From Enterobacteria phage vB_EcoM_IME540, in the sequence record MT150133.1: a stretch of DNA of 64,000 bases. The stretch is one strand, 5' to 3'. Below the pieces are notes generated by a model. The model saw nothing but the letters and a program-made list of their open reading frames with translations, was not told the origin of the DNA and searched no databases. This document shows positions 40,794 to 53,707 of this stretch, piece after piece. The first letter of the stretch is position 1, and each line of letters starts with the position of its first letter. Position numbers and translations under genes: made by a program.

Positions 40794-41093
40794 TTAGAAA
40801 GAACCAGAACCTCTAATTGTGTTCTGGCGACCTTTATTTTCTAATTCGGAGTGGTCGATTTCATATGCTTGTGCTACGCCAAAGGCCTTTTTAACTTTAG
40901 CTAAAGAACCTTTAGATGTAACAATATTAAAAGTATTACCTTTGGTAAAATCAACAAAATCGACTTGTACGCCCTGTTTACCGAGGCTTGCTACAATAGC
41001 ATCAACATATTCTTGGTCTAAATTGCCTTGAACTCCAATTTGAAATGCTTTAGGAGCTTTGGCTTCTGTGATAAATTCTTGATAAGTTTTCAT
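40794..41093 (-). CDS. internal-protein-like capsid-targeted protein (IPII/IPIII region)
   Basis: N-terminus MKTYQEFITEAK matches the T4 internal-protein capsid targeting leader MKTYQEFIAE; sits beside denV as T4 ipII/ipIII do. Confidence 0.6.
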   Translation of the reverse strand: MKTYQEFITEAKAPKAFQIGVQGNLDQEYVDAIVASLGKQGVQVDFVDFTKGNTFNIVTSKGSLAKVKKAFGVAQAYEIDHSELENKGRQNTIRGSGSF

Positions 41094-41136
41094 TGTTATT
41101 CCTTAAGTTGATAGAAGTATTCTATCACGGATTTAA

Positions 41137-41553
41137 TTAAGCGTAAATAGCCTTGCCATAATGTTTGTACCAGGTAGGACGCTGTGCAATTTTTTCATCC
41201 AAACGGGTCTGAGATATAGCAATAGAAGCTTCGTGTGGAGTATAGTCACCACGGAATTCCTGAGGAATGCCACTAATGTCCTGGACAGTAGTATCCTTGA
41301 TATTAAAACCACGTTTTAAACATTCGGCTATAAGCTCAATTTGTCGCTTACGTAAAAATTCAAGCTTATCGTAAAAGAATGTAACATGGCCTGTGCCAAG
41401 GATAAAAGTAGGACTGATTTTGAAATCACGGACACGTTTACCATTAGCAACATGCTTACGAACTGCACCGAAAACACGTGGTAATTCACGATATTCAGCC
41501 ATTAAGTGTTGGTCGGCCAATTCAGATACTAAGGTAAGGTTGATACGAGTCAT
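41137..41553 (-). CDS. denV: endonuclease V (pyrimidine-dimer DNA glycosylase) DenV
   Basis: 138 aa, essentially identical to T4 DenV ([29 protein letters not shown]...). Confidence 0.95.
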
Positions 41554-41581
41554 TTTTTAATCTCCTGTAGTTGATAGGTCT

Positions 41582-41610
41582 ATAGTATCATGCCTACAGG
41601 AGATGTAAAC
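41582..41610 (-). promoter_or_regulatory. early promoter element (GTTTAC-N17-TACTAT)
   Basis: family member; the adjacent TATAAATA at 41612-41619 is formed by the last codons of the upstream ORF. Confidence 0.55.
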
Positions 41611-42009
41611 TTATTTATAGGTTTTCATCCAATTCTTGAACAAAGCTGCGACGTCTTTCTCTTTAACGTTCAGTTTAACGTCCAACATTTTACCACCGGC
41701 AGCACGTGTCTGACGAATCTTAGCAGTACCGGTTTCGCCATTCCACTCAACATAATACTGTCCGGTGTTCATTGCAATACCGTCGCCGTAGTCTTCATTT
41801 TTAGAAGTGGTGAATGCCAGCTTCATAGTCTTAGATACACGAGCCTGCATGCCTGTCTGAAGGGCATTACGAACGCGAATAACCTGAGGAGTGGCCTGGG
41901 TCAGGTTTTCATTCAGTTCTTCAGTGAACTCTTCAGATTCAAACATCGCCAAAAGTTCTTTAGATGCAGGAATTACATTCTCTGCGATAAATTCATTATA
42001 AGTTTTCAT
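41611..42009 (-). CDS. internal-protein-like capsid-targeted protein (132 aa)
   Basis: N-terminus [11 protein letters not shown] (CTS-like leader). Confidence 0.6.
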
Positions 42010-42490
42010 ATGCTTTCCAAGTACCTGTTTTAAATGTGGAAATCACGCGCTTAGCACGATTAGGAGTTTGTTTATACCAACGGGATTGAGCCAGGTTAAC
42101 TGCTGCATCATCCCAACGTTTTTGCTGAAGCATACGCAGAGAGTTAGTGAACCCTGCTACGCCTGCTTCACCCATTTGGAAGACCATGTTAATTAAAGCA
42201 CAACGACGAACTTCGTCCAGTACATCATAAACAGGTTTCAATTTAGGATTACGCAGAATAGCTCTACGAGCATTTTCAACCGACCGGTTAAAGAGTTGTT
42301 CGGCTTCAGCCATAGTAATACGACCATTGCAAACTCGACCCATAAGCTTATCAAGTTCAGCCCGAGCAACATCTTTAGAAGGATTCTTAGTAATCAATTG
42401 GCCAATACCAATAGTATAGTATCCCTCAGTATCCTTATATAAGTCTAATTTACAGCCTTCATCAAGGCGTAACATATCAAAAATATCCAT
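41996..42490 (-). CDS. e: lysozyme (endolysin) E
   Basis: 164 aa; [12 protein letters not shown]...[13 protein letters not shown]...[14 protein letters not shown] matches T4 lysozyme. Confidence 0.95.
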
Positions 42491-42520
42491 AATACCTCCT
42501 GAGTATAGGAGGTATTTATA
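42491..42520 (-). promoter_or_regulatory. gene e leader: late promoter TATAAATA overlapping an SD-sequestering hairpin
   Basis: minus strand TATAAATA-CCTCCTATACTCAGGAGGTATT-ATG; inverted repeat ACCTCCT/AGGAGGT pairs the SD. Confidence 0.55.
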
Positions 42521-42970
42521 TCAAAAGAGCGAGTCTAAAACCTTAAACATCGACGGGCCCATGACATATTCCCATTGAGGTCGTTTAATCAAGGCGAACG
42601 CATCGAATTCAGGAATAGTACGACCCTCAGGGAATGTATGGTAAGCCGTACATTTGCAATCCTTGAACTGCTCGTGTTCCACAGGCACCGTATATAAGAA
42701 CAGATGTAGATTCTTATTGCTTGAATATTTGAACTCACCTAGGTCTTTCAGGAATGCAGGATCGTATGCTGTGAATCCAATCTCTTCTTCGGTTTCGCGC
42801 ATTGCCGCTTGAATAGGCTCTTCGCCTGGTTCGACATGACCTTTAGGAATGTCCCATTTATGACGCATATTCTCTGGATTACGAGAGCCTGTTACACGAC
42901 CCATGACCAGTTCTTTATCAACGGTCATGAATAAAATACCTGCCGATAATTCCTTAGCTTTCTTACTCAT
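42521..42970 (-). CDS. nudE: Nudix hydrolase NudE
   Basis: Nudix box GHVEPGEEPIQAAMRETEEEIG; start trimmed to MSKKAKEL (149 aa). Confidence 0.8.
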   Translation of the reverse strand: MSKKAKELSAGILFMTVDKELVMGRVTGSRNPENMRHKWDIPKGHVEPGEEPIQAAMRETEEEIGFTAYDPAFLKDLGEFKYSSNKNLHLFLYTVPVEHEQFKDCKCTAYHTFPEGRTIPEFDAFALIKRPQWEYVMGPSMFKVLDSLF

Positions 42971-43199
42971 CGTCTCGTTCCCATGATTGTTTAAAAATAT
43001 CTTGCATAATAATTTGAAGTCTATTTTCTGTTGATGGACTTTCACTATCAGACACTTGAAGCATATAGTCACCAATAGGACAGAACATATCCAAGTCGCT
43101 TTCTAAATCTTCTTTGATTTTCTCTTCTGACGTTCCGGTATCATAGGAATACAGATAAGAATCACATGACTCGGATTTAATATAAATCGCAATACTCAT
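42963..43199 (-). CDS. hypothetical acidic protein (78 aa)
   Basis: coding-strand ORF. Confidence 0.45.
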   Translation of the reverse strand: MSIAIYIKSESCDSYLYSYDTGTSEEKIKEDLESDLDMFCPIGDYMLQVSDSESPSTENRLQIIMQDIFKQSWERDDE

Positions 43200-52088: not shown

Positions 52089-52256
52089 CTCAAATAAAAT
52101 TAAGTAAAGTAAGTTTGATTAATAGACCTTGTCTATTATGAAAGGTTCTTTGAGGGAAGAACCTTTGGTAATAGAGGGTATTAATGATAGAGTAATAATA
52201 ACACATTACTCTTAAAGCATATTACTATTTTTAGGAATAGTCTGGTCAAATTTGAT

Positions 52257-52547
52257 TCATTGTGGCCACATATTAATGTAATCAAGTTTAATAGAAGCAA
52301 TCTTCAAAGGATTTTTAAAGATGTCGTATTCGATCAATCCGTTTTCAGTTGCGGTGTAGAAAGTAAAGTTAACAGAATTATAACGGCGACCATTAACTTT
52401 TAGTTTAACGTCGCTTGAACTACGACCAATATTAACCTGTTGGACATCAAGCACAGCACCTTTGCCAAAGTTGCGAATCAGTAGCTCTGCTGCAACCTGG
52501 TCTGAATTATAGCCATTCTCTGGATTAGTAACCTTAACGTATAGCAT
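52257..52547 (-). CDS. hypothetical protein (96 aa)
   Basis: coding-strand ORF. Confidence 0.5.
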   Translation of the reverse strand: MLYVKVTNPENGYNSDQVAAELLIRNFGKGAVLDVQQVNIGRSSSDVKLKVNGRRYNSVNFTFYTATENGLIEYDIFKNPLKIASIKLDYINMWPQ

Positions 52548-52955
52548 TTAACCCTCGTCTACAATAGTATGGGTATTAGCATTAACAATCTGCCACCAGT
52601 CACAGTCAAAACGATTAGAACCGTAACGAGGCTTTTTCTCATTTTCGTTAATAATATCACGTAGTTCGTCTTCAGAAAATGCTTTAGCGATTAAATCGGT
52701 ATAGCCGCCACGTGGATAATAGTTATCACCTGCGAACAGAAGGAAATTTACTTTACCAGAAGGAACATATGCTTCCTTAGGATACTTGTTTCCTGCTTGG
52801 TCTACCACTTCAATATAACGGTAAGGAATATCGGTACTTTCAACCCATTGCCAAGCTGCAGCAGGGGATTCAAAAGCATCTACACCTAAACGGTTATCTT
52901 CATCTTTAGACGGATTATTTTCATAATCCGCATATACATAATATTCAATGTTCAT
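52548..52955 (-). CDS. hypothetical protein (135 aa)
   Basis: coding-strand ORF, translationally coupled. Confidence 0.5.
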   Translation of the reverse strand: MNIEYYVYADYENNPSKDEDNRLGVDAFESPAAAWQWVESTDIPYRYIEVVDQAGNKYPKEAYVPSGKVNFLLFAGDNYYPRGGYTDLIAKAFSEDELRDIINENEKKPRYGSNRFDCDWWQIVNANTHTIVDEG

Positions 52956-53140
52956 TATTCACCTTTAGAGATTTTATCCATAACGAAAGAAATTGAACCA
53001 ATTAAGAATGCCACTACTAAAGAGATTATATTCTCGGAAGTTGAAAGCATATCGAGCATGAATCCTGCAAACATACTAAAGCCAAAAGCAGTAACAGCGG
53101 CCAGTGCAGTAACATTTCTAATTAATTCACAAGGTTTCAT
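52955..53140 (-). CDS. small membrane protein (~61 aa)
   Basis: start trimmed to MKPCELI; two hydrophobic helices. Confidence 0.5.
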   Translation of the reverse strand: MKPCELIRNVTALAAVTAFGFSMFAGFMLDMLSTSENIISLVVAFLIGSISFVMDKISKGE

Positions 53141-53176
53141 TTTATTCTCCAATCACTCATTTGTTTTGATAGGGCT

Positions 53177-53206
53177 ATAGTACCATCACTAAAGCCCGTT
53201 GTAAAC
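53177..53206 (-). promoter_or_regulatory. early promoter element (GTTTAC-N18-TACTAT)
   Basis: family member: agggctatagtaccatcactaaagcccgttgtaaac. Confidence 0.5.
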
Positions 53207-53208
53207 AA

Positions 53209-53481
53209 TTATTTTAAATAAATTGCATATTTTTTATAACCAGCCGTCTCGTGGCGCAGCCCTTTTTCATTAGCAAAACGTTCAATATTGTTAATTTGAT
53301 TCTGGTCGAGTTCTGAAGTATCAAATACAAAAAAGTTTCGCTTATTGCCTAAAGTTACGTGATTAGTCAAATCGATGTTATAGAGATGATTTATATTATC
53401 AATCATGGTCTTAACAGATTTGTTAATTTTTACTTCTTCATTAAGAATAGATTCAGCGATAAATTCTTGGTATGATTTCAT
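53209..53481 (-). CDS. internal-protein-like capsid-targeted protein (IPI region)
   Basis: N-terminus MKSYQEFIAESI (CTS-like); 90 aa. Confidence 0.6.
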   Translation of the reverse strand: MKSYQEFIAESILNEEVKINKSVKTMIDNINHLYNIDLTNHVTLGNKRNFFVFDTSELDQNQINNIERFANEKGLRHETAGYKKYAIYLK

Positions 53482-53482
53482 T

Positions 53483-53707
53483 TTATTCAGCGCCAGCAGC
53501 TTTCAAAAGTTTTTTAAGATTGGCTATGCCGCCAGCAGAAAACGTGACCTTGCCACCTTTTTCATTGATAGAGCCAGTCAATTTAGCAAGCTTATCACTA
53601 GGGACTTTTTTAAAATCAGCCAGTGTGCCATCAAAGGTTTTTGTAACAATTGGCAGTTCATCTTCATGTCTTTTAGCTTCGGTGATAAATTCTTGATAAG
53701 TTTTCAT
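53483..53707 (-). CDS. internal-protein-like capsid-targeted protein (IPI region)
   Basis: N-terminus MKTYQEFITEAK (CTS-like); 74 aa; own promoter element upstream. Confidence 0.6.
   Translation of the reverse strand: MKTYQEFITEAKRHEDELPIVTKTFDGTLADFKKVPSDKLAKLTGSINEKGGKVTFSAGGIANLKKLLKAAGAE

Follow-up and report, generated by a model that had tools for sequence, protein, structure and literature searches.

Internal protein genes at the two ip loci of Enterobacteria phage vB_EcoM_IME540 and their predicted role against host defences

The four leader-bearing genes and their loci

The window analysed in this work is a stretch of 64,000 nucleotides (64 kb) of Enterobacteria phage vB_EcoM_IME540 (MT150133.1) that carries four small open reading frames (ORFs) beginning with the leader of T4-type internal proteins (Ips). 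The first ORF (40794-41093) is located between vs.8 and denV and encodes a 99-amino-acid (99-aa) internal protein of the Ip7 family with the N-terminus MKTYQEFITE. The second ORF (41611-42009) encodes a 132-aa leader-bearing internal-protein candidate, and its ATG overlaps the final 14 nucleotides (nt) of the lysozyme gene e. The third ORF (53209-53481) encodes a 90-aa internal protein of the Ip9 family with the N-terminus MKSYQEFIAE. The fourth ORF (53483-53707), which is the first gene after 57B, encodes a 74-aa internal protein of the Ip8 family with the N-terminus MKTYQEFITE. The original prediction had placed four internal-protein-like genes at exactly these coordinates and had given no strand; all four are located on the minus strand.

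The region is 91-96% identical to the Dhakavirus phages JS10, QL01, MX01, LQ5, and ABTNLS3 (T4-type Straboviridae), and the source genome is, as judged from its sequence, a JS98/QL01-like Dhakavirus. Comparison with the annotation of JS10 and T4 places all four genes in the two classical variable ip loci, which are syntenic with the ipII/ipIII and ipI loci of T4. The gene order at the first locus is vs.8 - Ip7 - denV - 132-aa - e in the window and vs.8 - denV - ipII - ipIII - e in T4. The gene order at the second locus is trna.4 - Ip9 - Ip8 - 57B - 57A - 1 in the window and trna.4 - ipI - 57B - 57A - 1 in T4.

The leader and the predicted mature proteins

All four ORFs begin with MK(T/S)Y(Q/N)EFI(A/T)E, which has 8-9 of its 10 residues in common with T4 IPII and IPIII, both of which begin with MKTYQEFIAE. 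The 64 kb window was scanned in six frames with the strict motif and three looser versions, and only these four ORF starts were matched. Chance is not a credible source of four such ten-residue matches, given that every one is at the start of an ORF and that they fall in two syntenic loci. The leader of T4 IPI is longer and different (19 residues, MKTFKEFTSTTTPVSTITE), so the leader in the window is of the IPII/IPIII type. The leader is closed by I-x-E (ITE or IAE) at residues 8-10 in all four proteins, and (L/I)-x-E is the cleavage motif of the T4 prohead protease (gp21). The identification of the leader as the T4 internal-protein capsid-targeting sequence in the original prediction is thus supported as far as the sequence can show. 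The genes of gp21 and gp22 lie outside the window; QL01, the closest annotated relative, encodes a head maturation protease and scaffolding proteins beside its major head protein.

BLASTP comparison of the four proteins with each other and with T4 IPII and IPIII shows that similarity is limited to the first 10-19 residues. The exception is a weak resemblance between Ip7 and Ip8, which reaches 33% over 76 residues for the JS10 orthologue of Ip7. The leader is constant across homologues whereas the mature parts diverge. The DNA that encodes the leader forms a family of 43-nt direct repeats (D3) with 67-91% identity. The predicted mature forms are 64-122 aa in length with isoelectric points (pI) of 8.0-9.6, where the Ip7-family form has 89 aa (pI ~9.0), the Ip8-family form has 64 aa (pI ~9.6), and the Ip9-family form has 80 aa.

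The tag, the cleavage motif, and the synteny observed in the window argue that the four proteins are very probably internal proteins that are packaged, processed, and injected.

Family assignment of the 99-aa, 74-aa, and 90-aa proteins

For family assignment, 50,697 phage records were searched by tblastn with only the mature parts as queries. The 99-aa protein belongs to phrog_2667 ('internal head protein', E=7e-43). It is 97% identical to the internal head protein of JS10, 84-97% identical to ip7 of VR5/VR20, and ~48% identical to ip7 of T2. Its mature part was matched in 283 phage records and is named ip7 in VR5/VR20. The 74-aa protein belongs to phrog_8765 ('internal virion protein', E=8e-27) and is 87% identical to VR5 ip8 over the scored part, with matches in 107 records. 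The 90-aa protein belongs to phrog_7673 and is 77% identical to Ip9 of RB15 (UniRef Q38376) and 95% identical to VR5 ip9. Its mature part was matched in 199 records and is named ip9 in VR5/VR7/VR20. The labels of the Ip7, Ip8, and Ip9 families in PHROGs are those of internal head or virion proteins. By these sequence matches, the three proteins are Ip7, Ip8, and Ip9, which are already annotated as internal head/virion proteins in RefSeq relatives. Each of the four proteins also has a 100% identical match in public phage genomes over the part scored by tblastn, which for Ip8 covers residues 1-47 of the 64-residue mature part.

No significant Pfam or NCBIfam family was matched by any of the four proteins. 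Weak matches to PDB chains are probably due to chance and were set aside, namely M.HhaI for the 132-aa protein (E=0.011), Csm5 for Ip8 (E=0.018), and a flagellin hook protein for Ip7 (E=0.0023). The AlphaFold2 model of Ip9 has a mean predicted local distance difference test score (pLDDT) of 80 and forms a small alpha/beta sandwich with only generic structural neighbours. When solved structures were searched by fold with this model, none matched significantly, and the matches listed did not include a structure of IPI*. The mature domain of Ip9 was found in 9 clusters only by a full-library HMMER search, which shows that the family is small.

The 132-aa family beside the lysozyme gene

The 132-aa protein belongs to phrog_15461, which is labelled 'unknown function', and it has no match to a named Ip family in PHROGs or in the tblastn search of phage records. 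Its homologues were matched in 49 records and are named 'hypothetical protein' in every listed one. The leader is kept in the homologues of Klebsiella phage Marfa (MKTYKEFIAE) and Erwinia phage Cronus (MKTYKEFLAE), although the Cronus homologue has only ~48% identity in the mature part. Conservation of the leader in these two phages indicates that the 132-aa protein represents a genuine leader-bearing family that has been missed by public annotation. More than 30 Ip variants have been listed by Comeau et al. (2007), as cited in PMC2839356, and the 132-aa family may already figure among them.

The 132-aa gene is located directly after e in the window, QL01, ABTNLS3, Marfa, and Cronus; in JS10, ipIII is located in between. 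The 132-aa gene begins within the end of e, with an overlap at 41996-42009. There the stop codon of e (TAA) takes up the third base of codon 4 and bases one and two of codon 5 of the 132-aa gene. Codon 5 must therefore be AAx, so that position 5 is N or K and never Q across the family.

An acidic segment follows the leader of the 132-aa protein. All aligned homologues keep the ELNEN motif at residues 30-35 with little or no variation. This motif contains L-x-E, which makes a second protease cut that would remove the acidic pro-segment plausible. The AlphaFold2 model of the 132-aa protein has a mean pLDDT of 54, which is too poor for a fold search.

Repertoire of internal proteins among Dhakaviruses

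The set of internal proteins differs among close relatives. The window has Ip7, the 132-aa protein, Ip8, and Ip9. QL01 has Ip7, IpIII, the 132-aa protein, Ip8, and Ip9. JS10 has Ip7, the 132-aa protein, IpIII, and an unannotated 97-aa Ip. ABTNLS3 has an 85-aa Ip, IpII, IpIII, the 132-aa protein, and Ip9. The 64 kb window spans both ip loci, and no homologue of the mature parts of ipI, ipII, or ipIII was found in it. ipIII is usually the most conserved internal protein gene. It is absent at 41554-41995 of the window and present between denV and e in QL01 (44171-45314 of the locus) and JS10 (3792-4968 of the locus). The unannotated ORF of JS10 (NC_012741.1) is located on the minus strand in the gap between trna.4 and 57B with its start at locus position 16274, and its 97-aa product carries the leader MKTYQEFIKE. 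Judging by this leader and its position, the ORF is an ip gene that was missed in the RefSeq record.

The varying repertoire bears on the explanation that the four proteins are purely structural passengers, which is to say small basic polypeptides that aid DNA condensation or ejection and have no specific host target. The mildly basic pI of the predicted mature forms fits such a role, and so do the ~1000 internal protein molecules that are embedded in the DNA of the T4 head (PMC3012670). However, the mature forms have 11-17 basic and 8-15 acidic residues and hence little net charge, and a needed structural role would not tolerate the free change of repertoire among close relatives, as with ipIII, which is absent in the window and present in QL01 and JS10. 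Ip1, Ip2, and Ip3 of T4 are moreover non-essential and have specific targets (PMC12373910). We consider structural passengers to be improbable in comparison with internal proteins that act on specific host targets.

DNA modification genes

A cluster at 3742-8453 on the minus strand was identified by Pfam and BLASTP as a cytosine hypermodification cluster with orthologues of the arabinosyl-5-hydroxycytosine genes of RB69. Pfam identified a thymidylate-synthase homologue and a fusion of a nucleotidyl-transferase and a kinase in this cluster. The BLASTP identity between the window and RB69 is 78% for gp48 (thymidylate-synthase homologue), 63-69% for gp46:47 (glycosyltransferase), 62% for gp51, 41-44% for gp52:53 (nucleotidyl-transferase plus kinase), and 37% for gp45 (kinase). 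No counterpart of RB69 gp50 and gp55 was found among the six ORFs compared. The cluster also has a counterpart of the phosphatase of the RB69 pathway.

The RB69 gp48 protein has been experimentally shown to be a 5-hydroxy-dCMP synthase (PMC13326640). The arabinosyl-5-hydroxycytosine chemistry of RB69 has been determined, and the same pathway has been predicted in Dhakaviruses (Lee et al., 2026; PMC13326640). The premise of the original prediction that the DNA of this phage carries a non-standard modification is borne out by these pathway orthologues. BrxU, an enzyme of the GmrSD family, has been reported to cut DNA with arabinosylated cytosine (PMC13390438). The presence of arabinosylation genes in the window, taken together with the cleavage of such DNA by BrxU, indicates that phages of this kind are exposed to type IV restriction.

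Relatives of Ip9 without the leader

The mature domain of Ip9 is also found without the leader in phages that are unrelated. A 72-aa protein that is encoded in the early region of the Kagunavirus siphophage JSSK01 (2507-2725 of the locus) shares 51% identity with it. The domain also forms the C-terminus of a 755-aa protein of the Kuttervirus phage maane (Ackermannviridae; 473-2740 of the locus). The Kuttervirus proteins with a C-terminal Ip9 domain are 755-861 aa in length, and the large protein has no recognisable family besides phrog_3867 ('unknown function'). The leader can therefore be regarded as an add-on to a portable domain.

In Mosigvirus OLB35, an ORF annotated as 'ip7 protein' (1120-1491 of the locus) is leader-less and apparently decayed. 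Its middle part is Ip7-like (50% identity) and is followed by a C-terminus that is Ip9-like (77%), and an Ip9-like fragment interrupted by stop codons is located just upstream. From this arrangement, the ORF looks like a recombination remnant between ip genes.

Proposed function of the internal proteins

The capsid-targeting sequence suffices to load foreign proteins into T4 heads, and internal proteins have been described as diverse injected defence proteins that have only the targeting sequence in common (PMC3012670). Their action against type IV restriction was put forward by Rao and Black (2010; PMC3012670). Each of the T4 proteins Ip1, Ip2, and Ip3 has since been reported to inhibit one distinct GmrSD enzyme without cross-protection, and the same role has been proposed for all proteins of the two ip loci (Silas et al., 2025; PMC12373910).

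In the mechanism proposed for the four proteins, the first ten residues of each precursor (MKTYQEFIxE) would serve as a tag that directs it to the assembling prohead by binding to the scaffolding core. The gp21 prohead protease would then cut after the Glu of I-x-E and remove the tag. The mature proteins, which are small (64-122 aa) and mildly basic, would remain in the head with the DNA and enter the cell together with it, and their action would therefore precede any expression of phage genes. In the cell, they would most likely bind host defence enzymes directed against the injected glycosylated DNA and thereby block them. Among such enzymes, the type IV restriction enzymes of the GmrSD family would be the leading candidate targets, with each Ip specific for one variant.

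We favour this reading of the four proteins as packaged and injected internal proteins that block host defences, with type IV enzymes as the leading targets, and we give it a probability of roughly 0.6. The part of it that names type IV restriction enzymes as the targets is more tentative, and its odds fall a little short of even.

Several points weigh against the favoured reading. When ip4-10 were screened against GmrSD variants, no reproducible inhibition was found, and the apparent effects of ip7 and ip8 failed to repeat (PMC12373910). IPI*, Ip2, and Ip3 bear no resemblance to any of the four proteins beyond the tag. The tag-less homologues of Ip9 argue that specificity for glycosylated cytosine is not required of its target. 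Searches of the literature found no virion proteomics for Dhakavirus Ips. No perfect copy of the T4 late-promoter motif TATAAATA is located within 3.5 kb upstream of ip8/ip9, where there are only one-mismatch variants; the nearest perfect copy is ~3.5 kb away.

The first three of these points also speak for the explanation that the proteins are packaged and injected while at least one of them targets something other than a type IV enzyme, either another early-acting defence or a host function. It is also in keeping with this explanation that the model of Ip9, the sole one that was fold-searched, had no significant match among solved structures, and that the Ip9 domain is found in the early region of JSSK01 and fused to the large Kuttervirus protein. 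However, all three Ips of known target inhibit GmrSD enzymes and occupy the same two loci. The ip4-10 screen used T-even challenge phages (PMC12373910), so enzymes that attack only arabinosylated DNA were not probed by it. The proven inhibitors IPI*, Ip2, and Ip3 are themselves mutually dissimilar (PMC12373910), and likeness of sequence or fold therefore discriminates weakly between the explanations. Kuttervirus DNA is also hypermodified, so a modification-dependent target would be possible there too. A target outside type IV restriction is thus rather unlikely as we see it, and inhibition of type IV enzymes is kept as the leading reading.

A more specific proposal is that the Ip9 effector is a portable counter-defence module that was made injectable by the addition of the ten-residue tag, and that it acts on a widespread defence whose action is not confined to DNA with glycosylated cytosine. 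Under the same proposal, the 132-aa protein would be an internal protein that has escaped recognition, and a cut at its second, conserved protease site (ELNE/N) would remove the acidic pro-segment. We put this combined proposal forward as a possibility of which we are doubtful.

Promoter-like repeats and expression of the ip genes

Nine copies of the element GTTTACA-N16-TACTATAGACCTATCAA were counted on the minus strand of the window, where 0 would be expected by chance. The nine 40-nt copies are located at 676-715, 29224-29263, 30624-30663, 33704-33743, 39074-39113, 41571-41610, 44732-44771, 50008-50047, and 53734-53773, and they mark variable regions of the genome. The element is predicted to be a promoter of the T4 early type with a short internal stem-loop.

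Three promoter-like repeats of family D1 on the minus strand are located at the ip loci. The repeat at 53734-53779 is directly upstream of the Ip8 gene and the repeat at 53166-53211 is directly downstream of the Ip9 gene (site TTTACA-17-TACTAT), so that the ip8-ip9 pair is flanked on both sides. The repeat at 41571-41616 is located between the 132-aa gene and denV. The start codon of Ip9 is one base past the stop codon of Ip8, which suggests translational coupling.

The T4 late-promoter motif TATAAATA is found on the minus strand at 42513-42520 upstream of e and at 41612-41619 upstream of denV and the Ip7-family gene. Late transcripts of e and of the 132-aa gene that overlaps it could start from the copy at 42513-42520. 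The copy at 41612-41619 may likewise serve as a late promoter for denV and the Ip7 gene.

These elements bear on the explanation that the leaders are inherited remnants and that the four proteins are ordinary cytoplasmic early proteins, expressed from the adjacent early promoters and left unpackaged. The early-promoter-like elements directly upstream of ip8/ip9, with no perfect late promoter nearby, are in line with it, as is the Ip9 domain that works tag-less in other phages. Nevertheless, two of the four genes are located downstream of perfect late-promoter motifs, and all homologues retain the tag together with its I-x-E, including where identity in the mature part is only ~48%. The decayed ip9-like gene of OLB35 has, for its part, lost the tag too. 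This explanation is very improbable, and the leaders are read as working capsid tags.

The promoter and stem-loop arrangement at the two ip loci has been described by Arbiol et al. (2010), citing Repoila et al. (1994), as a proposed driver of modular shuffling (PMC2839356). The ip genes in the window may behave as exchangeable cassettes in the same manner, where the promoter/stem-loop repeats and the DNA that encodes the tag would provide short homologies for recombination. Recombination at such homologies would explain why close relatives carry different sets of Ips.

Other features of the window

Rfam identified only two tRNAs in the window. A GIY-YIG homing-endonuclease-like ORF (51033-51698) is located between the two tRNA genes (50956-51027 and 51740-51810), and the homing endonuclease segB of T4 is found at the corresponding place. 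Two 35-nt GC-rich hairpin repeats (50069-50103 and 50692-50726), which are 94% identical, flank a 184-aa ORF (50104-50658). This arrangement suggests another mobile cassette. The 160-nt non-coding spacer between the Ip7 gene and vs.8 (40634-40793, ~50% GC) was considered as a structured RNA and rejected: no Rfam family was matched, and its folding is no more stable than that of shuffled sequences (z=0.19).

Significance of the findings

The feature is real and was read correctly in the original prediction, but such genes are textbook knowledge for T4. Names already exist for three of the four genes, and the hypothesis on function has already been published. The additions made in this work are modest. 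One is the recognition of the unannotated 132-aa family, in which the overlap with e constrains the leader and a second cleavage site is possible. The others are the homologues of Ip9 that lack the tag and the absence of ipI, ipII, and ipIII from both ip loci of a phage with predicted arabinosylated DNA.

Injected internal proteins are the first phage molecules that meet host immunity, and a target is known for only three of the more than 30 Ip variants described. The locus brings no new principle in this respect. However, the window has four different Ips and no Ip1, Ip2, or Ip3, and it thus offers a compact test set for defences that attack arabinosylated DNA, which are outside the reach of the published T-even screens. 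The findings also identify a gap in annotation, where the 132-aa family is publicly named 'hypothetical protein' and JS10 has an unannotated ip gene.

Comparison with known systems

The four proteins resemble T4 IPII and IPIII in their ten-residue capsid-targeting sequence, its I-x-E end, the small size of their products, and, for the first locus, the position between vs.8/denV and e. They differ from IPII and IPIII in that their mature parts have no detectable similarity to them and the window has no ipII/ipIII orthologue. The comparison with T4 IPI*, an injected protein that inhibits the GmrSD type IV enzyme of E. coli CT596, rests on the trna.4-57B locus, on a leader that would likewise be cleaved off, and on the expected entry into the cell together with the DNA. 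Unlike the four proteins, IPI has the 19-residue leader MKTFKEFTSTTTPVSTITE, and none of the four is similar to IPI* in sequence.

The mature parts of Ip7, Ip8, and Ip9 are alike in the window and in the T-even phages (Repoila et al., 1994), where they carry annotation in T2, RB15, VR5, VR7, VR20, and IME08. Unlike the T-even phages, which have glucosylated hydroxymethylcytosine, the phage analysed here is predicted to have arabinosylated 5-hydroxycytosine. The Ip7 gene is located in the denV locus in the window, whereas the match in T2 (69.8 kb) and the second of the copies in WG01 (70.5 kb) seem to be located in the ipI locus.

The ip cassettes are also comparable to those bounded by the promoter-plus-stem-loop elements (PeSLs) of RB49. 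The elements in the window differ from the RB49 PeSLs in that they are of the T4 early-promoter type with weak AT-rich stems, and T4-type elements of this kind have been regarded as analogues, not homologues, of the RB49 PeSLs (Arbiol et al., 2010; PMC2839356). As in the PeSL cassettes, repeated elements that combine a promoter and a stem-loop flank the ip genes, and the content between them varies among relatives.

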